From assembly GCA_016717305.1 (NCBI GenBank), contig JADKFY010000010.1, forward strand, positions 28,279-92,278: a stretch of 64,000 bases of DNA. Reading direction: 5' to 3'. The position numbers were made by a program, and so were the translations under genes. Under the pieces are notes generated by a model, which did no database searches, was not told the DNA's origin, and was given only the letters and a program-made list of their open reading frames with translations. This DNA comes from Flavobacteriales bacterium (GTDB lineage Bacteria; Bacteroidota; Bacteroidia; Flavobacteriales_F; PHOS-HE28). This document shows positions 332 to 59,018 of the stretch, in pieces. The first letter of the stretch is position 1. Each line of letters begins with the position of its first letter.

Positions 332-1120
332 TCATCGGGTCATGCAACAACGGAACCGGAAAAGAGCTGTGGGAATGTTGGTGAAGCCATAGTTGCAAGC
401 CACACCGGGTAATGGTTCATCCGTGGCCCAACCAGCGCCAATGGTCTTGGCATCGTTCGAGTTGTTCGCCGCGCTGTCCACCCATTCAGCGGAAATGACC
501 GTACCTATGAAGGTAGGTTTGGTGCGACAGGCATTCGCCCATTCACCCATGGAACACAACCTTGCACCAGTGTTGTGGCAATACGTAATTGCGTTGAAGA
601 AGGTGATCGCTGCCAAGGAGGAGTCTTGAATGCAGTACGTGCTGGTAGCTGCATAGAAACCTGTTGGGCAAGGGCGTGAAGCATTGCTCAAGAGCATGAA
701 TCGTGAGCCATCGTAGATCAGGCGTGCAGGAATACCTGCGGGCAGGTCAGCACTGTCCAACGGTAACTCACCGAATTTCACCACGGTTTGGGCACCGAGC
801 CCGTTCAACTCAAGAGTGGCCCCGGCTGCGTTCGCAGCATTTGGCACCAAGGTGATCATCATTCCAGGAGTGTATGCGAGTATCGCTGGCTCCAGATCTG
901 CGACGAGTTGGAGCGTACCTGATGCCGTGGCATAGGACATGGTGGTTGCCCGAGCGGCCGCGACACTAACAGCGGCATCCGGTACCAATGGTGAAGCCAA
1001 TCCGTCCACTTGGCGATCGGCATCCGTGGAGCCGGTCAACTCAATAGCGACAGGGACGTCCAACTGGGCGTGAACGAAAGGAGCACAAAGAGCCAAGAAA
1101 ACGGCCAAAGCGATCCTCAT
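332..1120 (-). CDS. secreted C-type-lectin-like domain protein (hypothetical)
   Basis: ATG at 1120-1118. N-terminal signal peptide MRIALAVFLALCAPFVHAQ. C-terminal half has the CTLD-like pattern CPTGF...YC...TF..A...C...GARLCSMGEW.NAC...W. Start overlaps the stop of the upstream gene (ATGA on the minus strand). Confidence 0.55.
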   Translation of the reverse strand: MRIALAVFLALCAPFVHAQLDVPVAIELTGSTDADRQVDGLASPLVPDAAVSVAAARATTMSYATASGTLQLVADLEPAILAYTPGMMITLVPNAANAAGATLELNGLGAQTVVKFGELPLDSADLPAGIPARLIYDGSRFMLLSNASRPCPTGFYAATSTYCIQDSSLAAITFFNAITYCHNTGARLCSMGEWANACRTKPTFIGTVISAEWVDSAANNSNDAKTIGAGWATDEPLPGVACNYGFTNIPTALFRFRCCMTR

Positions 1121-2007
1121 AACACCCTCAATTTGAAAACATGTTGGTTGTTCAGCCGCAAGAAATAGGCTCCGGTTCCTAACCCGGGAAGTACTACTTG
1201 CACATGGTCCACACCAGATCGGATCGGATCAACAGGAACGGTACGTCCAATTCCGTCGAACAACTCCAGGCTCTCGATCGGTTGATGGTCCAAGGCTACA
1301 ACATGGACCACGTCGTTGACCACGGTCGGGAATACATTGAATCCATTTTGGACCACCAAGGTCGGCACTGGAGTTGGTGCGTCCATATCGAACGCAGTAA
1401 TGTATCCACCGGGTTGGAACCAACTGCCGGATACTGAATTGCTCCCAACGTCCGGTGCACTTGCCATCAAGCTCCATGGCCCGGTCATGTCACCAGAACT
1501 GAACAACGATAGGTTCCCTGGTGGCAGACCATAGAGTTCGCTTGGGTCGTACGTGAGCACCACATCGATGGACCCATTTACCATAGGGCCTGATCGCAGT
1601 TCGAACCAACGCCCTATGCTCGAGTCTCCCTCAGGGAATTCGCGCGGTATATGCCCACGCACCACGGTGATGGGGGAAGGGCCACTACTCGAGGAAAGGT
1701 CCAACCCGAGGTTGCCGGGTTCTTCGTTCGAATAGGGCACGATTGCAGTGAGAACTGCAGTTTCGGTACCAGCACCGGTAATGGGTCCACCCACCGGTTC
1801 GAAGATCCTAGCGGTCTCTCCCAACGAAATAAGGCCGTTGTTCACCACGGTCGCTCCCGGGTCTATGGTCCATTCCAACGGACCTTCCAGTGTAACGGTG
1901 GTGCCTTCAGCAACAGTGACCGAACCGGAGATCAACCGCATTTGTTGACCACTGACCACTGCTTGATCAAGCAGTAGGATAGGACATAGGATAAACCATT
2001 TGTGCAT
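1117..2007 (-). CDS. T9SS C-terminal-domain secreted protein (hypothetical)
   Basis: The six-frame ORF is 1117..2307, but the likely start is the ATG at 2007-2005, which gives the signal peptide MHKWFILCPILLL. The C-terminus (...VDPIRSGVDHVQVVLPGLGTGAYFLRLNNQHVFKLRVL) has the Por/T9SS type A sorting-domain pattern. Confidence 0.6.
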   Translation of the reverse strand: MHKWFILCPILLLDQAVVSGQQMRLISGSVTVAEGTTVTLEGPLEWTIDPGATVVNNGLISLGETARIFEPVGGPITGAGTETAVLTAIVPYSNEEPGNLGLDLSSSSGPSPITVVRGHIPREFPEGDSSIGRWFELRSGPMVNGSIDVVLTYDPSELYGLPPGNLSLFSSGDMTGPWSLMASAPDVGSNSVSGSWFQPGGYITAFDMDAPTPVPTLVVQNGFNVFPTVVNDVVHVVALDHQPIESLELFDGIGRTVPVDPIRSGVDHVQVVLPGLGTGAYFLRLNNQHVFKLRVL

Positions 2008-2103
2008 GGGTTGCGAAGTTAGGAAGTTCAGTTGGATCGGGCACATGTGCCTAAGAGATCTTCTTGAGCGTCCCCCATTAGCTTTGCGCCAAATGCTAGC
2101 GAC

Positions 2104-2508
2104 ATGGATGTGAAGGGATTCGTTGTTGACCAACTTGGTCATTTTTCGGTATACGACCTGCCTGAAGTCCTTTTCGTTATTGTGGTTGCGGCCTTGCTGG
2201 GATATACGTTGGCAAGGTTCGGGGCAAGACAAACAGGGACTGTCCTGAAGCAAATGGCCTTTTGGGCCGCTGCAGCTGCATTGGCAGCTGTTTTTGTTCG
2301 ATCCCAATTGCCCATGGCTGCTCTTATGCTCGCGGCGGCAGTTTTGGCTGGGAAGCGTAGCTACGAAATGGGGAATGATGCCTTGTTCTTCTCCGTATTG
2401 GTGGTTGGCATCGGTTGCGGAAGCGGAGCCACGGTGGTTGTTGTTCTGGCGATGATCCCATATTTGTTCTTGATGCGTTGGGCCTTTGGGCCTGCTTCAC
2501 GTTCTTGA
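2104..2508 (+). CDS. small polytopic membrane protein (possibly DUF4956-like)
   Basis: ATG at 2104. The 134-aa product is very hydrophobic, with roughly 4 predicted TM segments. Its stop TGA (2506-2508) overlaps the ATG (2508-2510) of the downstream CotH gene, suggesting translational coupling. Confidence 0.45.
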   Translation: MDVKGFVVDQLGHFSVYDLPEVLFVIVVAALLGYTLARFGARQTGTVLKQMAFWAAAAALAAVFVRSQLPMAALMLAAAVLAGKRSYEMGNDALFFSVLVVGIGCGSGATVVVVLAMIPYLFLMRWAFGPASRS

Positions 2509-4169
2509 TGCTGGAAACCCAGGCACCTTGGAGCGACTTCATCGGTTTAGTGACAAGCAGCTTGCTTTGCTTGGCATTGGCGGCTTTTGTGGGAAGTCCA
2601 CCACCCGGTCCAGTTCCATTCAAGGGCGGTGCAGTTCCCTTGGTCCATCCATCGGTCGCAAGCGTTGGACAGAGCGGAAACGTTACTATCCGCTCTGTGC
2701 GAGGTGGCTATATTCATGTGGCTGAACAAGCCAATGGCCCAATGCTGGAAAGAGGCACCGTGTTCCGCTTTGTGCCTACCCCGGACCAAGTTGATGCGGA
2801 TCGTACGCTAAGTATCCCACTCTCGATCAACTGGCATCATCCCTTGTTGGGGTTACCCGCAGCTCAGGTAGTGCGTTTTGCGGAAAGTGATGGTCCGGAA
2901 AGGATCGGTCCGGAACGCATGCATACGATACTCTTTCAGGACCATGGAACATTGCCCGTATTGTCTTTGCTTGTACCTCACGGAGCTTTGTTCGATCCAG
3001 ACACAGGGATCATGGTCGTGGGGAACGGAATTTTCCATGCACCTGAGAAAGTGCTGGTGGCCGAGGCCAGGGACCCTAGATCGTGGAAGTATCCCGGCAA
3101 TTTCCACATGCGCGGTAAGGCATGGCAGCGAAGCGGCCGCATGCAATTCATCGGGGCCGATGGGCTTGAGATCTTCCAGACAGAAGTGAACGTTCGGATC
3201 AATGGACAGATGACACGTTCCTTTCCACAACATGCCCTTCGCTTCGGTTTTGAAAAGCCTTTGCGCGTGGATGTGTTCAACGAGAATGTCGGTTCAGGCT
3301 ACGAAGGATTGGTGCTGCGAACAGCAGGAAATGATCAGATCAAAGCCATGCTTCGGGATCCCTTCCAACACGGGCTATGTGCGGGTCTACCCTTCGAGGT
3401 ATCGGGATCACGCACATGCGTGGTTTATGTGAACGGTGCCTATTGGGGTGTCCATCATTTGCGGCACCGAATGGACGAGGAAGAATTGGCAAGGCGCTAC
3501 GGGGTTTCCAAGAAACGCATCACCATCCTGGAAGATGAAGCACGTCTTTACCGGGGTGATACCATGGAAGTGGTGCGGTTCGAACAACTTGCGGACCGTA
3601 CGTACCATTGGGACGGCAAGGACCCGGCCGAACGAAAGGCTCTTGAGGAGAACCTGGATATCGATGGTTTCTTCGCTTACATGGCCAGTCAAATGATCCT
3701 TGGTAACGTGGATTGGCCTTCGCAGAACGTGAAATTCTGGAAGTTCGGGGGCAAGGAGAAGGGCGATGCACCGTTGGATGGCAAATGGCGCTTCATCATG
3801 GGTGATTGTGATCTGGCCTATGGGGTATATGCGTCAGCGACCAGCGATATGTTCATGCGGGTAAAGGCGTTGGACGTGCCTTTGACTCGTTTGTTCAACG
3901 GAATGATGAAGGCTCCGGACCTTAAATTGCGCTTCGTACAGATAGCCCGTGATCTGGCCCAAGGGGCGTTCTCCGCAAAGCGATCCACGGCACGGCTGGA
4001 GGCCCTTGTAATGCTCATGGCACCAGAAATGGACAGACACACGGCCCGCTGGCGACGTCCGGGTTCAGTAGAGGTTTGGCAGAAGGAAGTGGATGTTTTG
4101 CGCACCTTCGCCGCCCAGCGCGAGGGCAACATCCTCCAGCAATTGGATGCGTTTGAACAAGTTCGCTAG
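2508..4169 (+). CDS. CotH-family atypical protein kinase, membrane-anchored
   Basis: Internal ATG at 2508 gives the hydrophobic N-terminus MLETQAPWSDFIGLVTSSLLCLALAAFVG. CotH signature blocks present: RINGQMTRSFPQHALRFGF (the RGNSSR..KKSF-type block), LRTAGNDQ...VYVNGAYWGVHHLRHRMDEEELARRYG, and GDCDLAYG (the W/HxDxD..G block). Confidence 0.75.
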   Translation: MLETQAPWSDFIGLVTSSLLCLALAAFVGSPPPGPVPFKGGAVPLVHPSVASVGQSGNVTIRSVRGGYIHVAEQANGPMLERGTVFRFVPTPDQVDADRTLSIPLSINWHHPLLGLPAAQVVRFAESDGPERIGPERMHTILFQDHGTLPVLSLLVPHGALFDPDTGIMVVGNGIFHAPEKVLVAEARDPRSWKYPGNFHMRGKAWQRSGRMQFIGADGLEIFQTEVNVRINGQMTRSFPQHALRFGFEKPLRVDVFNENVGSGYEGLVLRTAGNDQIKAMLRDPFQHGLCAGLPFEVSGSRTCVVYVNGAYWGVHHLRHRMDEEELARRYGVSKKRITILEDEARLYRGDTMEVVRFEQLADRTYHWDGKDPAERKALEENLDIDGFFAYMASQMILGNVDWPSQNVKFWKFGGKEKGDAPLDGKWRFIMGDCDLAYGVYASATSDMFMRVKALDVPLTRLFNGMMKAPDLKLRFVQIARDLAQGAFSAKRSTARLEALVMLMAPEMDRHTARWRRPGSVEVWQKEVDVLRTFAAQREGNILQQLDAFEQVR

Positions 4170-4175
4170 GTCGAT

Positions 4176-5540
4176 ATGCTGAATTACATACGGGACCATC
4201 TGCAGTTGTTCATCCTTGTGATCATTTTCGTGGTCGTTGGGATCTATGCCAAGTTGCTTCTATTCGCGCTCATGCCACTTTCCGTGTTCTTCCTAAAATC
4301 GAGGAACCTGTGGGCGGACATGGTCTTTGGTCTGCTCATCACCTTGGTACTGTCCGACATGACCCCGTGGTTCTTCTCCATGCAGGTGTTCAAGGCTGCC
4401 AAGAACACGTACATCATTGCCTTGGCCATCATCTTCCTATTGGAGAGGCATCGTTTCGTTCCATTATCCCGGGTGTTCAACATCTTTCTTCCCTTCTTTG
4501 TATACAGCTTCTTTCCCCTGATCTTCTCAGGCAGTATTGTGGTCGGTGTGCAGAAGACCATTTCCTATGCCTTGCTCTATTTGATCATTCCCAATTACGT
4601 GTTGTACAACTACCGGCTCTGGGGTTGGGAGTTCTTCCGCAATCTGGTCTTCTTTATGACCACGATCCTCTTGGCCGGCTTATTGATCAATTACTGGGGC
4701 GAGTTCTATGCTTACATGATCGGTCGTTTCCGAGGGCTCTTCGGCAATCCGAACGGCATGGCGATCTTCTGCTTCCTGTTGATCATGCTCATAACGATCC
4801 TGACGGCCGTGAAGAAGGACTTGTTCAATTGGAAAGAAAAGCTTGTGGTGTATGGCGTTGCAGGTTATTTCTTGATCGTCTCCGGATCCAGGTCCTCACT
4901 TATCGCCGTGTTCATCTTCTTGGTCTTCGGTCGTTTCTTCGCAGCATCTCCGTTCCTCGGTTTCATAAGCTTGCTGGGGGTGTTTGGGGTCATGGAGATA
5001 GTGCTGAGCAACTTGGAACCCATCGTTCAATTCTTGGGCATCGAATCTTACGTGCGACTGAACACCTTGGAGACCGGAAGTGGTCGCTATTTCGCTTGGG
5101 AATTCGCTTGGACCCACATCCAAGAATACTTGGTGTTCGGAGGGGGCTTCGGGAATGATGAACGCATCATGCGTAAAAATTACCATTATCTGGAAAGAAT
5201 GGGACACCAAGGTGGGGTCCACAATACCTACTTGTCGTTCTGGTTCGATGTGGGCATTGTAGGGTTGGTGATCTTCTTCAGGAGCTTTATCCTCATGTTC
5301 ATCAAAGCGAGCAAACTAGTGCCGATGAGCATTGGGGTCATGTTCGCGCTCATGTTCTCCATCACCTACGAATCGTGGTTGGTGAGTTCGCTGAACCCGT
5401 ATACCATCATCGTATTGATCATCATCACCATCGTGTCCGAAGCGGAGATTGTGGAATGGGAGGTTTTTGGGTCCGATGCAACCGAAGTGATCGATCAGGA
5501 ACCAGAGGTCGAACCAACCCTCCGGCTGGGTCCAGTTTGA
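4176..5540 (+). CDS. O-antigen ligase/polymerase-like (Wzy_C family) integral membrane protein
   Basis: ATG at 4176, 6 nt after the CotH stop. About 10-12 TM helices. Wzy_C-like segment ...VAGYFLIVSGSRSSLIAVFIFLVFGRFF... followed by a periplasmic-loop region. Confidence 0.6.
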   Translation: MLNYIRDHLQLFILVIIFVVVGIYAKLLLFALMPLSVFFLKSRNLWADMVFGLLITLVLSDMTPWFFSMQVFKAAKNTYIIALAIIFLLERHRFVPLSRVFNIFLPFFVYSFFPLIFSGSIVVGVQKTISYALLYLIIPNYVLYNYRLWGWEFFRNLVFFMTTILLAGLLINYWGEFYAYMIGRFRGLFGNPNGMAIFCFLLIMLITILTAVKKDLFNWKEKLVVYGVAGYFLIVSGSRSSLIAVFIFLVFGRFFAASPFLGFISLLGVFGVMEIVLSNLEPIVQFLGIESYVRLNTLETGSGRYFAWEFAWTHIQEYLVFGGGFGNDERIMRKNYHYLERMGHQGGVHNTYLSFWFDVGIVGLVIFFRSFILMFIKASKLVPMSIGVMFALMFSITYESWLVSSLNPYTIIVLIIITIVSEAEIVEWEVFGSDATEVIDQEPEVEPTLRLGPV

Positions 5541-5665
5541 TCCAGCTCTTGTGCGTTCGAAGGAATCCGTTGGCGCGAACAAGCAGGATCGGGGCAACCG
5601 AGTTTTTGACAAGGATCGTCAACTTCCGAAGCGGTACGGATCGCGGCTTTACATTGCGGCCCCGA

Positions 5666-8170
5666 ATGCAACGCAAGCTCTACGTCCTACTCTTCCTTGT
5701 GCTATTGCTCATAGCAGGTATTTGGTTCGCTGATCGTAAACTTAAGGGCCACGGACACCCCGGTCTTCCTACCTTTTTGCAGCAATGGTGGGTGAACTAC
5801 CCCGCATCTTTTGCCGTGGAACCAATGGTCGTTTCCATAACCGTTGAACAGGCCGATATCGACGCCCTTGAGGCCGTGGTACAGGCGGCACGTGAGCGCG
5901 GCGTGATCATGCCCGAGGGCAACGAATATGTACCGGCGATCTTGGAGTTCAATGGACAAAAGATCAAGACCAAGGTCCGGATCAAAGGCAAGATGAGCGA
6001 CCATGTCCAAGGAAGCAAATGGTCCTTCCGCGTCCTGACTAAGAAGGATGATGGCTTTCTGGGCATGCAGCGGTTCTCCTTGCAGCATCCCGGAACACGG
6101 AACTACTTGTGCGATTGGTTCTATCATCAACTGTCCCAAGGTGAAGGCATTATTGCGCTGCGGTATGGCTTTCTCCATGTCAATTTCAATGGCGAGGACT
6201 TGGGGGTTTATGCCTACGAGGAACACTTCGGCCCGGAGCTGTTGGTGAACAACGGTCGGCTGAACGGGCCTTTGTTCCGTTTCGACCCATCGTTATTCTG
6301 GGAACACCGGTTGAACATGATGAACAAGGTGCGGTACCACGAAGCATTCGGAGCCTACGAAGCTGCTGCGGTGGATGGGTTCGGCACAGGGAGTCTCGCA
6401 AAGGACTCGGTACAACGTAGGTATTTCGAGGAGGCCGTTGGGTTGATGGATTCGTTCAGACGCGGCGAACGCAAGGCTTCGGAGGTATTCGACGCGGACC
6501 TCATCGCGCGTCGGCATGCGCTCTTGGACCTGGTGGGCGGCCACCACAGCATGGATTGGAGCGATGTCAAATTCTACTTCGACCCGGTGCTCAAGCGCGT
6601 TGAACCGATCTCGTATGAGAGTTTCAGTGCATACCCCATTAAGGAATTGGCTGGCACCGGCAAGTATTCGGGTAAGCGATCTTCTTGGATGGACCTGCAC
6701 ACCGCATACTTCAATGATCCTGAAATTTTCCGCGCCTACGTCCACCATTTGGAACGCATGTCATCACCCACCTACCTGGACAGTGCTTTCACCAAACTCG
6801 CCCCGGCCTTGGACAGTGCTTCCGCATTGATCTACCGCGAATTCCCGTACAAGGAGCTGGATCGTTCAATTTACTACAAGAACGGCGCCTTGATCCGGCG
6901 GATGCTTGATGTGCCCAAAGGCTTTCACGCTTACTACGATGGAGGCGTGGACACTGTGAACATGACCGTGATCCCGATCGAGAGCCTCCCGATCGAAATA
7001 CATGGGTTGATCGACAAGGACGGCACGATACTCCCGCCGATCAGCGATCAGAACAGAGACTTACAAGCAACCATCGTTCCGAGCAGGATCGGCGGGGAAG
7101 TAGGAAAACCCATGACCGTCCGCGTGCCGATCAATGGGAAATTGGATCTGACCGCGGGCGTTCCATTGCGTATTTCATACAGCGTTCTGGGCGCATCCAT
7201 CCGCAAGGAGTTGGAGGTGTTCCCGTATGCCTATCTCGACAAGATCCAATTGCCATTGGTAACAGGAACGAACACGACCGACTTGCGGAACATCAGCTAC
7301 CTGCAAGTGGACGATCAAGAGAAGACGATCACGATCCTTCCAGGCAACTGGACCTTGGGTTCGGATCTGTACTTGCCCAACGGATATACCATAATGGCGA
7401 CCGCTCCATTACGGTTGGACTTCGTGAATGGTGCTCGATTGATCTCCAGGTCCCCCATGCTATGGAGCGGTGTGGAGGACCTGCCGATCGTACTGCATTC
7501 CTCCGATCAAAGCGGTGGTGGGCTCATAGTGCTTAGCAGCAGGGGGAGCAGTTCGTTCTACCGGGTGCGGTTCGAAGGCTTTGGAAGCAGTAGGATCGGG
7601 ACTCCATCCATCGTTCTACAAGATGCGGATGTCCACCTGAAGGAGTGTGACCTGGGCGAGGCTCGTGGACGGGACCTGCTGTTGGCCGTTCGGAGCAAGA
7701 TCGGAATGGAGGATGTTTCCTTCACCGGGGGAATGGACCAATTGACATTGGCCTATTGCACCACCACCATGGAAAAAGTAGGTGGCTTGGGCGCTGGAGA
7801 TGATGCCCTTTCCGTGAAAGGTGGATCAGCGGTGATCTCAGCGCTTCGTGTTGAAGGAGCCATGGGCACAGGGATCAAATTGGACGAATACGCCATTGTT
7901 GAATTGGTTGATCCAATGATCACATCCAAAGCCGATGCCGCCAGAGTGTCAGAAGGAGCAACACTGAAGGCAAAGGGAGGCTCCTTCACCAGTGAAAAGG
8001 AACAAGCATTGGATGTGGAACCGGAGCACGATCGCCACGGACCATCACAGGTTGAGTTGGATAGCGTGAAGACGAATGCTCCAACGCAGCCTTATCAGAT
8101 CGGTAAAGGGAATACGGTGTTGATCAATGGGATGGAAATGGAGCCGACCCTTTCCACGAAGGCACCATGA
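5666..8170 (+). CDS. CotH-family kinase domain protein with long C-terminal extension
   Basis: ATG at 5666 gives the TM anchor MQRKLYVLLFLVLLLIAGIWF. CotH blocks: KVRIKGKMSDHVQGSKWSFRVL, RYGFLHVNFNGEDLGVYAYEEHFGPELL, and HHSMDWSDVKFYFDP. The C-terminal ~300 aa is Gly/Ser-rich and looks like beta-helix repeats. The six-frame ORF begins at 5375, but the upstream part is His/Arg-rich junk. Confidence 0.7.
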   Translation: MQRKLYVLLFLVLLLIAGIWFADRKLKGHGHPGLPTFLQQWWVNYPASFAVEPMVVSITVEQADIDALEAVVQAARERGVIMPEGNEYVPAILEFNGQKIKTKVRIKGKMSDHVQGSKWSFRVLTKKDDGFLGMQRFSLQHPGTRNYLCDWFYHQLSQGEGIIALRYGFLHVNFNGEDLGVYAYEEHFGPELLVNNGRLNGPLFRFDPSLFWEHRLNMMNKVRYHEAFGAYEAAAVDGFGTGSLAKDSVQRRYFEEAVGLMDSFRRGERKASEVFDADLIARRHALLDLVGGHHSMDWSDVKFYFDPVLKRVEPISYESFSAYPIKELAGTGKYSGKRSSWMDLHTAYFNDPEIFRAYVHHLERMSSPTYLDSAFTKLAPALDSASALIYREFPYKELDRSIYYKNGALIRRMLDVPKGFHAYYDGGVDTVNMTVIPIESLPIEIHGLIDKDGTILPPISDQNRDLQATIVPSRIGGEVGKPMTVRVPINGKLDLTAGVPLRISYSVLGASIRKELEVFPYAYLDKIQLPLVTGTNTTDLRNISYLQVDDQEKTITILPGNWTLGSDLYLPNGYTIMATAPLRLDFVNGARLISRSPMLWSGVEDLPIVLHSSDQSGGGLIVLSSRGSSSFYRVRFEGFGSSRIGTPSIVLQDADVHLKECDLGEARGRDLLLAVRSKIGMEDVSFTGGMDQLTLAYCTTTMEKVGGLGAGDDALSVKGGSAVISALRVEGAMGTGIKLDEYAIVELVDPMITSKADAARVSEGATLKAKGGSFTSEKEQALDVEPEHDRHGPSQVELDSVKTNAPTQPYQIGKGNTVLINGMEMEPTLSTKAP

Positions 8171-9225
8171 GGAGGGTGTTTCCATTCGTGGTCCTCTTGC
8201 ACTTAGGGAACATCACGATCGCCCAAGTTTCGCCCTACACGGGGTTGGCGGTGGTGCCACCTGATAGCACAGGCAGTTACCGACTGTTGATCGGTGGACA
8301 CTTCCACGGGGCCAGCAGCAACACCAGTGGGTTTCCCGCGGCCACCTTGCTTGCCAATATCGGAACGCTCAATGCCACGAACGCCAACGTATTCTTGAGC
8401 ACCGGTGATCTTTTCCTGCGTCCGGATCGTGACAGCGTCCGCTATACTACCGCTCTCTTCGAAGAGTTGAAGTTGCCTCTTTTCAACGCACCGGGTAACC
8501 ACGATCTGGAAGGTAGCGCATACCATTCCGCAACCCGTATGCCAGTGATGATCCCAATGGGTGGGGATCGCATCATCCTATTGGACACCGAGCGGGACAA
8601 CAGTGATGTAAGCGGTGATCAGCTGCAACAGATCATAGATGCCGAACAAGCCGCAACTGAAGGTCACTTGCGACACCTGTTCATCATAAGCCACAGACCG
8701 GTCTGGTCAGAGGGCGAACCGAAGTACGGAGACCTCTTCAGAGGCAATACGCGATCGCTCACCGGGAGCAATTTCAAAAAGGACGTGCTCCCTGTATTGC
8801 AACGGATTGCCCAGCATGCAAACGTGTATTGGATCAGTGGTAGCATGGCGGGCAGGGCGCCGGCCAGTATTTTCTTTCAGGAGCACGAGCAGGGCATCAC
8901 GTTCATCCAAAGTGCAATTCGCGACGAATTGCGCGATGCCGTACTGATCGCGGATGTTTCGAAGCTTCCATCCTCCTCCGGAGAGGGCGAAGGGGTGAGG
9001 CCCCCCAGTGTTAAATGGACGGGCCTATCGCTTACGGGCCAACCCCTGGAACCTGTTCAGAGCTACGATGCAGCATGGTGGAAAGCACATCAAGGCACAG
9101 CCGAACCGTTCGCTTGGAGACGCATCCCCTATTTGATCAAAAAGACGGTAACCAACCTGAACTACTGGTATGGGTTCGGCACCGCAGTGTTGCTGCTACT
9201 ATTGGGTTGGCGCATCCGGAGATAG
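8167..9225 (+). CDS. calcineurin-like metallophosphoesterase, membrane-anchored
   Basis: ATG at 8167 overlaps the TGA of the upstream gene (ATGA). Signal peptide present. Motifs GDLFLRPD and GNHDLEG (GDxx / GNH[DE]) and a C-terminal TM segment (WYGFGTAVLLLLLGW). Confidence 0.7.
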   Translation: MRRVFPFVVLLHLGNITIAQVSPYTGLAVVPPDSTGSYRLLIGGHFHGASSNTSGFPAATLLANIGTLNATNANVFLSTGDLFLRPDRDSVRYTTALFEELKLPLFNAPGNHDLEGSAYHSATRMPVMIPMGGDRIILLDTERDNSDVSGDQLQQIIDAEQAATEGHLRHLFIISHRPVWSEGEPKYGDLFRGNTRSLTGSNFKKDVLPVLQRIAQHANVYWISGSMAGRAPASIFFQEHEQGITFIQSAIRDELRDAVLIADVSKLPSSSGEGEGVRPPSVKWTGLSLTGQPLEPVQSYDAAWWKAHQGTAEPFAWRRIPYLIKKTVTNLNYWYGFGTAVLLLLLGWRIRR

Positions 9226-9335
9226 GAGAATAAGTTCCACAAAAAGCAACCTCCATGCACCGGACTTTATAGCAACCCGGTCGTGCATCCAACGTCATTG
9301 GTTTAGATTTACCCGCTCCAGCGAACCAAAGAAGA

Positions 9336-10271
9336 ATGTCACGTATCCTAGTTACCGGAGGTGCCGGATTTATTGCAAGCGACCTCGCTCTACGGCTTGC
9401 CGAAGATCCCAAGAACGAGGTGGTGGTCGTGGACAATCTGCTCACTGGTGAGATCGGGCACATCCATTCACCGGGCCACAAGAACCTCCACTTCATCAAG
9501 TGTGACGTGAACCGCTTCGAGGACATCAGTGGGGTGTTCTACGCCTACCGTTTCGACCACGTTTTCCACTATGCCGCTATGGTGGGTGTAAAGCGGACCA
9601 CGGACAATCCGGTGCAAGTCCTCAGGGATACGGACGGGATCCGGAACATTCTGGACCTCTCGAAGAACACGGGGGTCAAACGCGTCATCTTCAGCAGCAG
9701 CAGCGAGGTGTATGGGGAACCGGTGGAGATCCCTCAGAACGAGAAGACCACACCGCTCAATTCCAAGCTCCCTTACGCGATCGTGAAGAACATCGGAGAA
9801 GCTTTCCTTCGGTCCTACCACAAGGAATACGGGTTGGATTACACCATCTTCCGCTTCTTCAACACCTACGGACCCAAGCAGAGCAAGGATTTTGTGGTGG
9901 CCAAGTTCCTTCGGGCTGCGGTCAACAACGAGGACATTACCCTGTATGGCGATGGAATGCAGACGCGAACGTTCTGCTACATCGATGACAACCTGGATGC
10001 CTGCCTTAACGCCTACCACAAGGGTGAAGTGATGAACGATGTCGTGAACATCGGATCCGACAAGGAATTCACCATCAAGGAACTCGCCCAGCTCATCATC
10101 GAGGTTGTGGGCAGCAAGTCCAAGATCGTTCATCTGCCGGCCTTGGAAGAAGGGGATATGACCCGTCGCATGCCTGATGTGACCCGCATGCGCAAGTTGT
10201 TGGGTCGCGAACTGCTGCCTTTGCGCACGGGCTTGGAGCGGATCCTGGCCAGTGGCATTGCACAGGGGTAA
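9336..10271 (+). CDS. NAD-dependent epimerase/dehydratase (UDP-sugar 4-epimerase / UDP-glucuronate decarboxylase-like)
   Basis: N-terminal Rossmann motif ILVTGGAGFIASDL. SSSSEVYG and the YxxxK catalytic pair (YAIVKNIGE). GDGMQTRTFCYIDD is typical of UXS/Gal-epimerase-type short-chain dehydrogenases (SDRs). Confidence 0.85.
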   Translation: MSRILVTGGAGFIASDLALRLAEDPKNEVVVVDNLLTGEIGHIHSPGHKNLHFIKCDVNRFEDISGVFYAYRFDHVFHYAAMVGVKRTTDNPVQVLRDTDGIRNILDLSKNTGVKRVIFSSSSEVYGEPVEIPQNEKTTPLNSKLPYAIVKNIGEAFLRSYHKEYGLDYTIFRFFNTYGPKQSKDFVVAKFLRAAVNNEDITLYGDGMQTRTFCYIDDNLDACLNAYHKGEVMNDVVNIGSDKEFTIKELAQLIIEVVGSKSKIVHLPALEEGDMTRRMPDVTRMRKLLGRELLPLRTGLERILASGIAQG

Positions 10272-12160
10272 TGTGCGGGATCACCGGTATTTTCGGGCTC
10301 GAAGGGTTTGACAAGGCGGAGGGCTCCGTGGGCCGCATGAATGATGCCTTGGCCCACCGCGGTCCAAATGCATCCGGACTGTGGCGTGGATCGAATGTGG
10401 TACTTGGACATCGTCGGCTCAGCATCATCGACCTATCGTCGGCATCAGACCAACCCTTCCATTCCTCCGATGGCCGGTTCGTTATCGCATTCAACGGCGA
10501 GATCTACAACTACCGCTCTTTGCGAGCCGAACTTGTCGGGCTTTTGGGTGAAGAAGCTTTCCGAACGAACAGCGATACGGAGGTGCTCTTGAATGCCTAT
10601 GTCCAATGGGGTTCCGGTTGTTTGCCTCGGCTGGAAGGCATGTTCGCCTTTGCCGTTTGGGATGTGAAGAATGAAGAGCTCTTCTTGGCTCGCGATCGCA
10701 TGGGGATCAAGCCACTGTATGTGTATCGGAATGATCAACACCTGGTGTTCGCAAGCGAGATCAGGGCCCTGCTCGCTTCGGAACTGGTTCCTCGAGAATT
10801 GGATCCTGACGGCTTGGTGGACTACCTACGCTACCAGACCGTGCATGCGCCACGCACCATGGTAAAGAATGTTTCCATGTTGCGTGCTGGTCATTTCCTG
10901 CGCATCACCGACCAAGAGGTCACAGAGGAACGTTGGTATGATCCAATTGAGGCATCCCGGAAATACCCGGGGGAAGCGCCCTTGGAAGTGGTTCACAAAG
11001 AAGTGAAGGAACGGTTGACCAAAGCGGTGGAAAAACGACTCGTGGCCGATGTGCCCTTCGGTGCATTCCTCAGTGGCGGGATCGATTCCAGTGCGGTCGT
11101 CGGGCTCATGGCAATGTGCTCCATGGAACCGGTCCATACCTTTTCTGTGGTCTTCGAAGAGGAAGAATTCAGTGAAGAACGTTATGCGCGGATCATCGCC
11201 AAGAAATTCAATACAGAGCATACCGTGATCCGCTTGCAACCAGCGGACATGCTTCGCGAATTGCCCGCAGCCTTGGCCGCCATGGATCACCCGAGCGGTG
11301 ATGGCCCCAACACCTACGTCGTTAGCAAGGTCACCAAGGCAGCGGGGGTCAGCATGGCATTGAGCGGTTTGGGTGGCGATGAACTGTTCGCAGGCTACCC
11401 GGTTTTCAAGCGCACGTTGGCATTATGGAACAAGCGCTGGGTCACCCAGTTCCCGTTGGGCTTGCGCAAACTGATCGGACAAGCGGCGATCACCGCGAGG
11501 CCCTCCGTGGCCACGCGTAAATTGGCCGAGCTCCTCAAGCTCGACACTTTCTCCGTGGATGATACATATCCCGTTTCCCGCTTGGTACGCACCGATCGTG
11601 AACTGGTTGAAATGGTGCAGCGGCAAACCTTTCCAGTTAATGCCGTGGCTGTGGAAATGGAGTGCCAGATCCGCACACTGAAAGGCTATTCACTTCCATT
11701 CCTTAGCCAAGTGGCAGTGGGTGAACTAAGCACCTACCTGCAAGATGTCCTATTGCGAGACACCGACCAGATGAGCATGGCGCATGCACTGGAAGTACGC
11801 GTCCCTTTTCTGGATCATGATCTGGTGGAATACGTGCTGGCTGTTGGCGACGATCTGAAATACCCACATCAACCCAAAAAGCTCTTGGTCGATTCCTTGG
11901 GCGATCTTCTTCCGCGCGAGATCATCGACCGTCCTAAAATGGGCTTCACACTGCCGTGGGAGCTCTGGATGCGCGTGGAACTACGATCATTCTGCGCAGA
12001 GCGTTTGCAAGCATTGGGCAAGCGCAAGGAATTCCGCCTCGGGGTTATGGACCGGCTGTGGTCACGTTTCCTCGCCAAGGACCCTGGTGTCAATTGGGCA
12101 CGGCTTTGGTCATTGGTGGTCTTGGAGGATTGGCTTCAGAGGAATGGGATGGAGAAGTGA
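10271..12160 (+). CDS. asnB: asparagine synthase (glutamine-hydrolysing)-type amidotransferase
   Basis: ATG overlaps the upstream TAA (TAATG). N-terminal MCGITGIFG class-II glutamine amidotransferase nucleophile. PP-loop SGGIDSS. Length 629 aa. Confidence 0.85.
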   Translation: MCGITGIFGLEGFDKAEGSVGRMNDALAHRGPNASGLWRGSNVVLGHRRLSIIDLSSASDQPFHSSDGRFVIAFNGEIYNYRSLRAELVGLLGEEAFRTNSDTEVLLNAYVQWGSGCLPRLEGMFAFAVWDVKNEELFLARDRMGIKPLYVYRNDQHLVFASEIRALLASELVPRELDPDGLVDYLRYQTVHAPRTMVKNVSMLRAGHFLRITDQEVTEERWYDPIEASRKYPGEAPLEVVHKEVKERLTKAVEKRLVADVPFGAFLSGGIDSSAVVGLMAMCSMEPVHTFSVVFEEEEFSEERYARIIAKKFNTEHTVIRLQPADMLRELPAALAAMDHPSGDGPNTYVVSKVTKAAGVSMALSGLGGDELFAGYPVFKRTLALWNKRWVTQFPLGLRKLIGQAAITARPSVATRKLAELLKLDTFSVDDTYPVSRLVRTDRELVEMVQRQTFPVNAVAVEMECQIRTLKGYSLPFLSQVAVGELSTYLQDVLLRDTDQMSMAHALEVRVPFLDHDLVEYVLAVGDDLKYPHQPKKLLVDSLGDLLPREIIDRPKMGFTLPWELWMRVELRSFCAERLQALGKRKEFRLGVMDRLWSRFLAKDPGVNWARLWSLVVLEDWLQRNGMEK

Positions 12161-12237
12161 GGGCTGACAGTTCTTTATCAGCCTAACCCGCCCAGCACTG
12201 TACTACGAGATAATGCTCCGCACTCGTCGGATTATAC

Positions 12238-12424
12238 CATTTCGCAGTAAGGAGTAGGCCAGAGATGCGCCGTGATCTTTTCGCATGGCGATACGGCAGG
12301 GTCGTTGCAACGCCGAAGGCGTGGACCGCAGGGTGCGAAGCAACCGAGGGCCGGAGCTACGGAACGATCCTGTCGGAGAAGCCAGGTGGAAAGATCACAA
12401 GTAGATCGGCCTAAGCCTTACTGC
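12238..12424. ncRNA. candidate structured RNA or MITE-like element closed by an 18-bp inverted repeat
   Basis: cgcagtaaggagtaggcc (12238-12255) is the near-perfect reverse complement of ggcctaagccttactgcg (12407-12424). An inner helix gtgatcttt/aaagatcac follows. The element sits in the convergent gap between asnB and the downstream minus-strand gene. No credible ORF. Confidence 0.3.
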
Positions 12425-12558
12425 GAGATGGTATTAGCCCCCTTCTCCTTGGGAGATGGACCTAAGGTGGGTTTGCATTCCACCCCTCTTCTTGGGTGAG
12501 GAGAAAAGAAAAGGGCCACCTCTTTCAAGGCAGCCCTTTCTGAATTCAGATCTCGTTC

Positions 12559-13527: not shown

Positions 13528-13910
13528 GTCAATAGGGTGGCACGCCGTGTACCATCGGGCAAACATAATAAAGATCCCGCTGGCATCGCCAGAAAGGGCC
13601 AGATAGAATATCAACAACCTTCTACGGTAGGACATCAATTGGGGTTGTGCCCAAGGTCTTTAACCACCTTTTACTGACACCGCGGACCTCCGTGCCGAAA
13701 TTTCGAGATGGTTGGATATGAACATCCTTTATTTGGGATTTCCACGGTGCGCGGGTCGACCCTTGATCCACCATGGTTTTGTGAATTATGACTTGGGTCT
13801 TAGGTATTGCCTTTGGCTTTGCCACCTATCACCTGCACTTGCCCTTGTATTTTCCATTACGGGTTGCCTTTCTTCATTCGTCCCCAATTTCCCTCCTTTA
13901 CTTTTGGCCC

Positions 13911-49138: not shown

Positions 49139-49717
49139 ATGGCCGCGATCACGTTGAAGGTAGGGGACCGTGTCGCCTTTGTTAACGAGGTGGGTGGTGG
49201 TAGCGTTATCGAGGTGCGACTCCGCGGCCGGGTAGTCGTGCGTGGCGACGATGGATTTGAGTTAGAGCGAGGGCTGAAGGAATTGGTGCGTTATGACCCT
49301 GTCGCGATCAAGAAGGCCTATTCAGTAACTGACCACCAAGCCGGGATGGTCGCTGCCAATGATGTGTTGGAGGAGAAGCGGAAGAAGCGATCGAATTCAA
49401 GGCCCGGTAAAACACCAAAACGGCCGGAGGACGCAAGCGTTGCCGAAGTGGACCTGCACTTGCATGAGTTGGTCCCGGACGAGACCCGGTTGGACAAGGC
49501 GGAGAAATTGAGCTACCAATTGGCCTATTTCGAGCGAAGCTTGGAGGCGGCGATCCGCGATGGCAAGAAGAAATTGATCGTGATCCACGGTGTGGGTGAA
49601 GGTGTATTGCGCGAGGAAGTGCGGAAAATGTTGCAGTTCTATGAGAACGTGCGTTTCCACGATGCTGATATGCGCAAGTATGGTGTGGGGGCCACGGAAG
49701 TTCAGATCCTGCGATAG
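49139..49717 (+). CDS. Smr-domain protein
   Basis: C-terminal Smr block KKLIVIHGVGEGVLREEVRKMLQFYENVRFHDAD. Confidence 0.7.
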   Translation: MAAITLKVGDRVAFVNEVGGGSVIEVRLRGRVVVRGDDGFELERGLKELVRYDPVAIKKAYSVTDHQAGMVAANDVLEEKRKKRSNSRPGKTPKRPEDASVAEVDLHLHELVPDETRLDKAEKLSYQLAYFERSLEAAIRDGKKKLIVIHGVGEGVLREEVRKMLQFYENVRFHDADMRKYGVGATEVQILR

Positions 49718-49751
49718 GAAGGACCCGGTCTGGCAAGTTTAGTTCTTTGAT

Positions 49752-50160
49752 ATCCTGTGCATCGCTTCGCCGTCCCGTGTCTTTGGCGCGGGGAGGAAAG
49801 TCCGGGCAGCGTAGGGCAGCGTGCTTCCTAACAGGAAGGGGCGTATTCGGGAACGGATGCGCTACGGAAAGTGCCGCAGAAAGGAAAACCGCCGACCCGC
49901 CGCAAGGTGGAGGTAAGGATGAAAAGGTGGGGTAAGAGCCCACCAGTGCTTCTGGCGACAGGGCAGCTAGGTAAACCCCACGCGCTGAAAGACCATGTAT
50001 ACTGGAAGTTCCGTAATGTCGGAACGTGGAAAGCCCGTCCTTCAAGGGCAACCTTGGGTCTGGAGGGTAGGTCGATGGATCCCGTTGGCAACAGCGGGAC
50101 TAGATAGATGGCGAAGGCCCAAGTAATTGGGAACAGGACCCGGCTTATAGGTGCACAGGC
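49752..50160 (+). ncRNA. rnpB: RNase P RNA, bacterial type A
   Basis: Conserved P4 strands GGGAGGAAAGTCCGGGC (about 49790) and ACAGGACCCGGCTTA (about 50130). P1 helix cctgtgcatc (49754) pairs with ggtgcacagg (50151-50160). GNRA/tetraloop-rich interior. All ORFs called across it are spurious. Confidence 0.8.
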
Positions 50161-50268
50161 TTTTATTGATGGGCCCTTCTTCCGTCCAACTGGATGTGGA
50201 GAAGGGCCTTTCCGTTGGAATGGACTTTGGAGGACAACGTCCACGGTTACCTTCGGCGCAGCAATGGA

Positions 50269-58944: not shown

Positions 58945-59018
58945 CGGGGTGTAGCGCAGCCCGGTAGCGCACTTGCATGGGGTGCAAGGGGTCGCTGGTT
59001 CGAGTCCAGTCACCCCGA
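58945..59018 (+). tRNA. tRNA-Pro (anticodon GGG)
   Basis: Acceptor cggggtg/caccccg plus A73. D-arm gcgc-agcccggta-gcgc. Anticodon arm cttgc-atGGGgt-gcaag (U33, G37). T-arm gctgg-ttcgagt-ccagt. No encoded CCA. Confidence 0.8.

Follow-up and report, generated by a model that had tools for sequence, protein, structure and literature searches.

The subject of this analysis is a gene cluster at positions 2104–12160 of a 64,000-nucleotide stretch of DNA from a Flavobacteriales bacterium (contig JADKFY010000010.1; the whole 64-kb stretch is called the window below), in which two CotH-fold proteins, CotH-A (CotH1) and CotH-B (CotH2), are encoded together with a Wzy_C-family membrane protein and a metallophosphoesterase-like protein. 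These four genes form a real, subfamily-specific unit that is embedded in polysaccharide operons, and the cluster in the window is a reduced derivative, lacking VTC, of the CotH-VTC-DUF4956 module and not a separate context. The cluster probably joins outward-facing CotH enzymes, a ligase/polymerase and the phosphoesterase-like protein to modify a surface sugar polymer. It comprises seven co-directional open reading frames (ORFs):

2104–2508, forward strand: g1, a polytopic membrane protein of 134 residues
2508–4169, forward strand: CotH-A (CotH1), 553 residues
4176–5540, forward strand: Wzy_C-family polytopic membrane protein, 454 residues
5666–8170, forward strand: CotH-B (CotH2), 834 residues, starting at the ATG at 5666
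8167–9225, forward strand: metallophosphoesterase-like protein, 352 residues
9336–10271, forward strand: extended short-chain dehydrogenase/reductase (SDR) of the nucleotide-sugar epimerase/dehydratase/decarboxylase type, 311 residues
10271–12160, forward strand: AsnB-type glutamine-dependent amidotransferase, 629 residues

The seven genes listed in the initial annotation of this DNA are thus all present, and the four junctions that it quoted are exact: the TGATG overlap at 2508, the 6-nt gap at 4170–4175, the 4-nt ATGA overlap at 8167 and the 1-nt TAATG overlap at 10271. Two longer spacers, which it did not mention, precede CotH2 (125 nt, 5541–5665) and the SDR gene (110 nt). Along the gene order the median spacings in 48–70 related loci are 3, 3, 30, −4, 41 and 0 nt, and the 4-nt overlap of the phosphoesterase-like gene with CotH-B, by which the two are translationally coupled, is kept in nearly all of 70 loci. 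Being conserved across these relatives, the tight junctions represent more than chance.

We then compared gene content across the lineage. A scan of species-representative genomes gave 130 loci; the 80 best of them and five further loci (L001–L005) form a set of 85 in-clade loci, and presence was counted in those with enough flanking sequence. CotH1 and the Wzy_C gene are each found in 62 of 65 loci and the phosphoesterase-like and SDR genes in all 61, while AsnB is present in 46 of 61 and is hence an optional member of the cluster. Two loci (L003 and L081) lack the block g1-CotH1-Wzy_C, and two others (L086 and L087) lack CotH2 yet retain the phosphoesterase-like gene. Homologues of both CotH proteins are named only from uncultured 'Flavobacteriales bacterium' genomes, where they carry the NCBI label 'CotH kinase family protein'. 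Across the clade the SDR is 75–88% identical, as are the housekeeping flanks, and the CotH, Wzy_C and phosphoesterase-like genes are 40–65% identical. Since the unrelated flanking genes (DUF6089, nitronate monooxygenase, CHU_C and IMP dehydrogenase) are syntenic as well, conservation within the clade could by itself reflect inheritance.

More distant relatives proved decisive in this respect. A profile of the CotH-A family, run against 1.84 billion representative sequences, matched 11,833 clusters at 50% identity, and the first of these after the in-clade clusters are proteins of about 580 residues with Fn3_assoc, CHB_HEX_C_1 and CotH domains from 'Bacteroidia' genomes. Eight distant loci (L090–L094 and L173–L175) were obtained, six looked up from the profile matches and two in metagenome contigs. 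In all eight, CotH-A is followed by Wzy_C and, after up to two inserted genes, by CotH-B with its beta-helix (823–864 residues where genes were called, in six of the loci) and then by a phosphoesterase-like orthologue of about 350 residues. The CotH-A orthologue that served as reference sequence of the distant alignment (P0264) is 26% identical to that of the window, and the identities of the other products are 37–42% for Wzy_C, 33–36% for CotH-B and 40–41% for the phosphoesterase-like protein. The flanks of these loci differ and consist of co-oriented sugar-nucleotide and glycosyltransferase genes; in the six gene-called loci a GT1 gene follows the core, and then AsnB or SDR where the locus extends far enough (AsnB in L090, L173 and L175). 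Recurring in all eight distant loci, in other surroundings and at 26–42% identity, the core is a real unit and not local synteny, and the operon-like, co-conserved cluster proposed initially was borne out both by the in-clade counts and by these loci. The same applies to its proposed glycan setting, as the relatives share their operons with polysaccharide biosynthesis genes: GT1, GT2, GT4, DegT, PglD-like, MBOAT, Acyl_transf_3 and Epimerase_2 genes occur elsewhere as co-directional neighbours. Still more distant and larger CotH proteins have DUF4956-VTC alone upstream, or nothing.

The inserted genes of the distant loci lie between Wzy_C and CotH-B in L092 (11176–13753), L174 (12109–14695), L090 (10956–11888) and L175 (9893–10879), and between CotH-A and Wzy_C in L173 (10808–11884). 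They encode a protein of about 370 residues with a faint GDSL/DUF1574 resemblance together with an MBOAT acyltransferase, or else a methyltransferase or a protein of about 310–330 residues without assignment, which hints that the polymer is also acylated or methylated in these insert-bearing lineages.

The distant loci also clarified the nature of g1, whose link to DUF4956 emerged only once they had been retrieved. On its own g1 has no Pfam or NCBIfam match, and scanning it and 26 of its orthologues against Pfam, with a threshold as loose as E ≤ 1, returned hydrophobic noise and no PF16316 (DUF4956). By blastp, however, g1 is 28% identical over 128 residues (E = 8e-11) to the DUF4956 protein of L091, and a profile of the 26 orthologues matches the DUF4956 proteins of L090, L091 and L092 with E-values of 2.6e-25, 2.3e-21 and 3.7e-20, respectively. 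Those of L091 and L092 score 59.5 and 65.8 bits against PF16316. The alignment spans g1 residues 2–125 and the first ~134 of ~227 DUF4956 residues, so that g1 is the N-terminal membrane half of DUF4956, with the C-terminal cytoplasmic part of about 90 residues absent. Its position agrees, as g1 stands where DUF4956 stands in the distant loci: in six of them (L091–L094, L173 and L174) genes for DUF4956 (226–227 residues) and VTC (226–236 residues) directly precede CotH-A.

A search for VTC (PF09359) by tblastn with two VTC proteins gave zero matches across the window and the in-clade loci, which confirms the absence of a VTC gene claimed for the window. The contrast that had been drawn with the usual CotH-VTC-DUF4956 context did not survive: since most of the distant clusters begin with DUF4956-VTC and g1 is homologous to DUF4956, the window holds a VTC-less derivative of that module. 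In this lineage of uncultured Flavobacteriales, VTC has been lost and DUF4956 cut down to its membrane half. A comparable state is seen in the distant locus L175, where a truncated protein of 138 residues in the g1 position (6477–6893) is still recognized by Pfam as DUF4956 and VTC is missing; upstream of it lie divergent u genes (see below) and type-IX-tail genes. L090 likewise lacks VTC and encodes a full-length, weakly scoring DUF4956-like protein (7302–7973). VTC and the C-terminal part of DUF4956 were thus lost jointly in the window clade and in L175, amid different surrounding gene content, and their joint loss in two lineages suggests that the two work together or interact.

The proteins of the core were examined by the profile searches and structure predictions that the initial annotation had proposed. 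CotH1, Wzy_C, Epimerase and Asn_synthase were recovered by Pfam, Metallophos marginally so, and CotH2 fell below the Pfam cut-off; in the predicted structures, by contrast, both large proteins have the CotH fold and find their best match in Bacillus cereus CotH. CotH-A matches PF08757 with E = 2.4e-37 (129.6 bits against a cut-off of 23.8) over profile positions 1–319 of 322. It consists of an N-terminal membrane helix (residues 8–28), a beta-rich domain (~45–155) that is homologous to the Fn3_assoc/CHB_HEX_C_1 region of its distant orthologues, and a CotH kinase-like domain (229–539). The AlphaFold models of both CotH proteins were built from alignments of 62–63 orthologues; that of CotH-A, with a predicted local distance difference test (pLDDT) score of 89, is matched best in Foldseek by B. 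cereus CotH (5jd9, E = 4.7e-14, target-normalized template modelling (TM) score 0.71). PDB sequence searches with CotH1, CotH2, the profile, the phosphoesterase-like protein and Wzy_C gave no useful match.

The B. cereus CotH sequence was aligned to the CotH-A and CotH-B profiles. D402 and N407 of CotH-A align to B. cereus D224 and N229, and D433 and D435 to D247 and D249; all four are the same in each of 62 orthologues and also in the distant ones. Given their 23-residue spacing, B. cereus D224 and D247 correspond to D228 and D251 of B. subtilis CotH, mutation of either of which inactivates that protein (PMC7821199). CotH-A is a canonical CotH, and a candidate kinase, that keeps the catalytic Asp and Asn and the metal-binding Asp pair. 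In the N-lobe (residues 241–245) the window protein and most in-clade orthologues read QHALR, the distant ones QKSLR and B. cereus CotH KKSYH; one in-clade locus (L022) retains the Lys. The idea that the Lys-to-His change tracks the loss of VTC was dropped, as the VTC-less loci L090 and L175 retain the Lys.

CotH-B is more divergent. It scores 21.1 bits against the Pfam CotH model, below the cut-off of 23.8 and in the N-lobe only, whereas its distant orthologues do carry precomputed Pfam CotH matches (E ≤ 1e-5). A membrane helix (residues 2–28) is followed by a divergent CotH fold (~50–415), a beta-sandwich (~420–520) and a right-handed parallel beta-helix (~545–830). Among solved structures its AlphaFold model (pLDDT 86.5) is closest to B. 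cereus CotH (5jda, E = 4e-11, TM score 0.65). From this predicted fold and the Pfam-passing distant orthologues, CotH-B can be assigned as a CotH-fold protein of a different subfamily. A profile-profile comparison of the CotH-A and CotH-B families gave a weak N-lobe match alone. The N-lobe of CotH-B retains KWSFR, which corresponds to B. cereus KKSYHV. In the C-lobe, D297-W-S-D300...E313-P-x-x-Y-E318-S-F stands in place of D-x4-N...DxD, its placement coming from a low-confidence greedy alignment. K118, D297, D300, K302, E313 and E318 do not vary among 63 orthologues, and the motifs KWSFR and DWSD...EP.YESF are also retained in six distant ones. Two alignments of low confidence, one by profile and one by MAFFT, agree that D300 faces the Asn of CotH and that E318 falls within DxD, across from the first Asp in the profile alignment and from the second by MAFFT; D297 lies opposite the catalytic Asp in the profile alignment and in a gap by MAFFT. 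The shared signature blocks that had been ascribed to both CotH proteins are accordingly real for the fold and the N-lobe, and the catalytic C-lobe motifs are confined to CotH1; of the kinase active-site residues, the catalytic Asp and Asn and the metal-binding Asp pair are present in CotH1, the canonical motifs being absent from CotH2.

The beta-helix of CotH-B has weak Foldseek neighbours in AlgG (4ozy, E = 2e-3) and in tailspikes, lyases and GH28 enzymes (E 0.01–0.3), and PF13229 is present in CotH-B homologues. A GH28-like GDD active site was considered and dropped; the distant orthologues lack the GAGDDA motif of the in-clade proteins, so that a catalytic role of the beta-helix is unsupported.

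The polytopic protein between the two CotH genes matches Wzy_C (PF04932) with E = 1.2e-15 (58 bits, cut-off 31.7) and has about ten or more hydrophobic segments, so that Pfam and hydropathy agree with the Wzy_C-type membrane protein named initially. It has no NCBIfam match and no PDB match by sequence. Close and distant orthologues alike share the motifs RxxGxxGNPNG, GSR, GSGR and GHQGGVHN-x9-GxxG.

For the phosphoesterase-like protein the earlier claim of a metallophosphoesterase holds in part. It passes Metallophos (PF00149) marginally (22.6 bits against 21.5, residues 61–118 only), some of its orthologues passing and some failing the cut-off, but the full metal-binding motif set (DxH, GD, GNH[D/E], H, GHxH) is not there: the protein retains GD, GNHD and SHRP but has (S/G)GHF(H/Y)G in place of DxH as its first motif. 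It is predicted to begin with a signal peptide and to be anchored in the membrane near its C terminus by a segment after which RIRR follows.

Among the remaining products, the SDR matches Pfam Epimerase (E = 1.7e-51), in line with the sugar epimerase-type enzyme first proposed, and reaches none of the NCBIfam equivalog cut-offs; its best PDB matches are human UDP-glucuronate decarboxylase (UXS1) structures at E = 6e-46 and 160 bits, so that it comes nearest to these decarboxylases and is probably not their orthologue. AsnB matches Asn_synthase (E = 2e-80) and GATase_6/7 in Pfam and scores 453 bits against the general asparagine synthase model TIGR01536 (cut-off 267), and 451 bits, far under the cut-off of 817, against the XrtA/PEP-CTERM amidotransferase model TIGR03108. 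Its identity as an AsnB-type amidotransferase was therefore upheld by Pfam, and as an obligate member of the cluster it was not, being absent from 15 of 61 in-clade loci. NCBIfam names among the cluster proteins are limited to generic SDR and asparagine-synthase models.

Transcription was approached through the motif TAnnTTTG, which we take from established knowledge to be the −7 promoter consensus of Bacteroidetes. One exact copy stands directly upstream of the cluster:

2079–2086, forward strand: −7 promoter box TAGCTTTG (TAnnTTTG), its first base 25 nt before the ATG of g1

Between this box and position 13899 no further exact copy occurs on the forward strand. The motif lies 18–38 nt before g1 (mode 25–26) in 38 of 51 related in-clade loci, compared with a background rate of 0.012 per 100 nt; before the other genes it is found in none of 64 loci for CotH1, none of 69 for Wzy_C, none of 71 for the phosphoesterase-like gene, none of 48 for AsnB, 3 of 78 for CotH2 and 12 of 66 for the SDR gene. 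Since the whole window has 19 exact copies, no more than in shuffles, it is the placement and not the number of boxes that is promoter-like. Many of the 19 precede same-strand ORF starts by tens of nucleotides, e.g. at 13899, 24301 and 60181 on the forward and 13560, 38007 and 54710 on the reverse strand. At 9304–9311 the sequence TAGATTTA, 32 nt before the SDR start, differs from the consensus by one mismatch, and because an exact box is found there in 12 of 66 related loci, a weak internal promoter before the SDR gene is possible. Taken together, the distribution speaks for a single main promoter upstream of g1 and, in some loci, a second one inside the cluster, ahead of the SDR gene. A sigma-70 promoter and terminator scan gave fewer matches than shuffles and is uninformative for a Bacteroidetes genome.

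How might these proteins work together? We propose that 2104–12160 is one transcription unit that would serve the outward-facing, late part of a surface-polysaccharide pathway of environmental Bacteroidia, with a conserved core of DUF4956 (with or without VTC), CotH-A, Wzy_C, CotH-B with its beta-helix and the phosphoesterase-like protein. At the periplasmic face of the inner membrane, the Wzy_C protein would polymerize or ligate an undecaprenyl-diphosphate-linked glycan, and CotH-A, anchored beside it, would phosphorylate the glycan or its carrier. CotH-B, with its altered but invariant acidic active site, may hold or process the polymer via the beta-helix, the phosphoesterase-like protein may trim or recycle a phosphoester, and the SDR and the optional AsnB would act on a cytoplasmic sugar precursor, supplying or amidating it. 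Gene content, folds, conserved residues, co-conservation, the polysaccharide setting and the promoter pattern are observed; we infer the chemistry, that is the topology, the substrate, the phosphoryl donor and the role of each enzyme, and judge the overall model, a periplasm-facing phosphoryl-transfer and glycan-processing module on a Wzy-type pathway, to stand at about even chances. The membrane anchoring of both CotH proteins asserted initially holds as a prediction from hydropathy and charge bias: N-in/C-out anchors are predicted, and the N-terminal tails are more positive than the segments after the helices. The signal peptide and the C-terminal anchor with its Arg cluster in the phosphoesterase-like protein, as well as the Fn3_assoc and CHB_HEX_C_1 domains of distant CotH-A orthologues, also favour an outward orientation.

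The bacterial periplasm lacks ATP. In relatives with VTC and full-length DUF4956, polyphosphate might therefore be made and passed across the membrane as the phosphoryl donor, an export idea drawn by analogy from the eukaryotic VTC complex, which is reported to couple polyphosphate synthesis to membrane transit (PMC9911596). A bolder form of this reading, in which VTC and DUF4956 feed CotH for the extracytoplasmic (poly)phosphorylation of a bacterial glycan, the phosphoesterase-like protein edits the product and the window lineage uses another donor such as undecaprenyl diphosphate, would make this the first bacterial machinery of its kind; it is speculative, and we rate it as rather improbable.

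Several observations weigh against the proposed model. Most in-clade CotH-A proteins have His for the N-lobe Lys; CotH-B, from which the canonical D-x4-N and DxD motifs are missing, may have no activity; and in the phosphoesterase-like protein GS.GG, without His, replaces the GHxH metal ligands. With no VTC in the window and no ATP in the periplasm, a phosphoryl donor is not apparent. Either CotH can be lost (CotH1 is missing from L003 and L081, CotH2 from L086), no flippase, chain-length regulator or glycosyltransferase is encoded within 2104–12160, the topology derives from hydropathy and charge counts alone, and the carrier organisms are uncultured. Furthermore, the characterized members of the family are to our knowledge only cytoplasmic (mother-cell) protein Ser kinases, and we know of no biochemical activity for a secreted or periplasmic bacterial CotH.

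Some of these points would be expected if the CotH-fold proteins were not phosphotransferases at all and acted as scaffolds, glycan-binding co-polymerases or regulators of Wzy_C chain length, with a phosphoesterase-like partner that is non-catalytic too. The changed motifs of CotH-B, the His in CotH-A, the incomplete metal site of the phosphoesterase-like protein and the want of VTC and of periplasmic ATP all fit such a role, as does the absence of a Wzz/Wzc-type regulator from the cluster. The invariance of D402, N407, D433 and D435 over 62 orthologues and the distant ones makes a non-catalytic CotH-A hard to explain, and in CotH-B, too, the same positions are occupied by acidic and basic residues without variation; we regard this alternative as unlikely.

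Slightly less probable still is a system directed at proteins, in which the CotH proteins would be secreted-protein Ser/Thr kinases and the Wzy_C protein an O-oligosaccharyltransferase of the PglL/PilO type, the u-family or type-IX-tail proteins being their substrates and surface phospho- or glycoproteins the outcome. The Wzy_C domain is, as is well established, also found in the protein O-oligosaccharyltransferases PglL and PilO, and tandem secreted u-proteins and Por_Secre_tail proteins adjoin the cluster in the clade and in L090 and L175, yet L092, L173 and L174 have no u genes within 8–9 kb. Protein Ser phosphorylation is the sole proven activity of CotH (PMC7821199), but no Ser-rich repeat substrate like CotB or CotG is visible here, the beta-helix of CotH-B resembles polysaccharide-acting enzymes, and the neighbouring genes build a polymer and not a short glycan. 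That the adjacency of CotH, Wzy_C and tailoring enzymes is mere inherited synteny of one lineage without a functional link, as the syntenic in-clade neighbourhood with its unrelated flanks and an SDR evolving at the flank rate might suggest, is very improbable and for the core from g1 to the phosphoesterase-like gene already largely refuted by its recurrence in all eight distant loci, where the flanks differ and identity is 26–42%, the conserved start/stop overlaps and the single conserved promoter box before g1.

Several features next to the cluster deserve mention. Upstream lie two genes in divergent orientation:

332–1120, reverse strand: u2, predicted secreted protein without family assignment
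1117–2007, reverse strand: u1, predicted secreted protein without family assignment

Genes of the u2 type occur in three to six tandem copies in nearly all in-clade loci, and triplets of u homologues of about 260 residues (35% identity, E ~ 1e-51) lie near the core in L090 (1577–3899), L091 (667–3001) and L175 (1298–3629). The best lead for u2 is a weak FGE-sulfatase-like match (E = 0.004), and u-type paralogues often stand beside a thioredoxin/AhpC-like gene and type-IX-secretion-tail genes. The u proteins may be substrates or partners of the cluster.

Downstream of AsnB, the convergent spacer at 12161–12558 folds into an imperfect hairpin of about 210 nt (minimum free energy −157.8 kcal/mol, z = −7.1 against shuffles) with arms at 12229–12260/12408–12439 and 12272–12289/12381–12398. 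No Rfam family matches it, the window has a single copy, and none of the related loci contains it; a mobile inverted-repeat element and a structured RNA specific to the lineage are both conceivable. Elsewhere in the window, a class A bacterial RNase P RNA (251.6 bits) lies at 49754–50163 and a tRNA at 58945–59018, both on the forward strand. As the ORF at 49308–50051 on the reverse strand overlaps the RNase P gene, it is probably not a real gene.

The wider interest of the cluster lies in the CotH family itself, which is very large, as the 11,833 clusters found with the CotH-A profile alone illustrate, and has the Bacillus spore-coat kinase as its sole characterized member. Many bacterial CotH proteins are predicted to reside outside the cytoplasm, where ATP is absent. 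The cluster ties a defined CotH subfamily to a Wzy-type glycan pathway, and its fixed partners (DUF4956, VTC, CotH-B with the beta-helix and the phosphoesterase-like protein), together with the naturally reduced variants, offer a testable route to substrate and donor. If a surface glycan is indeed phosphorylated, a new kind of envelope modification would be added for Bacteroidia, from a group abundant in activated sludge and in freshwater.

When compared to characterized systems, both window proteins share the fold of the Bacillus CotH spore-coat kinase (5JD9/5JDA), and CotH-A keeps the equivalents of D228 and D251. They are only about 13% identical to it, are membrane-anchored and predicted to face outward, carry extra domains and come without CotB/CotG-like Ser-rich substrates or sporulation; in CotH-B the catalytic motif is changed as well. 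The animal Fam20 family and POMK likewise have a kinase-like fold and act on glycans outside the cytosol, and the xylose phosphate added by Fam20B is later removed by a phosphatase, which recalls the coupled pair of CotH-B and the phosphoesterase-like protein; this likeness is drawn from general background. The Golgi imports ATP, unlike the bacterial periplasm, which has none. With WaaL, Wzy and PglL/PilO the polytopic protein shares the Wzy_C match, the topology and a conserved Arg and H-N-x9-G-x-x-G block in a large loop; it differs from the known Wzy_C enzymes in having no NCBIfam or PDB sequence match, and a position between two CotH genes is not known for any of them. With its last ~290 residues CotH-B is predicted to form a right-handed parallel beta-helix as in the C5-epimerase AlgG, WceF and tailspike depolymerases, the structural matches to AlgG and tailspikes being weak (E 2e-3 to 0.3).

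The closest described system is the set of CotH, polyphosphate-polymerase (VTC) and DUF4956 accessory genes that adjoin Gram-positive Pel operons (PMC7112168), in Streptococcus intermedius SIR_1592–1594. Deletion of the CotH-like and DUF4956-like genes of this species lowers Pel and aggregation (PMC12345266), a precedent for the model proposed here. The initial annotation had called the cluster an undescribed system, and we found no description of a Wzy_C-linked CotH cluster in the searchable literature; the link of CotH, VTC and DUF4956 to an exopolysaccharide, Pel, had however already been published in these two reports. Compared with the Pel-adjacent set, the partner pathway here is of the Wzy_C type and not of the PelF/PelG synthase type, a second, divergent CotH is fused to a beta-helix, a phosphoesterase-like protein stands in place of DUF4832, and in the window VTC is missing and DUF4956 is cut to its membrane half. 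What the two have in common is a predicted secreted CotH protein that, together with DUF4956 and VTC, lies beside a polysaccharide pathway, an arrangement which the distant loci display directly as DUF4956-VTC-CotH.

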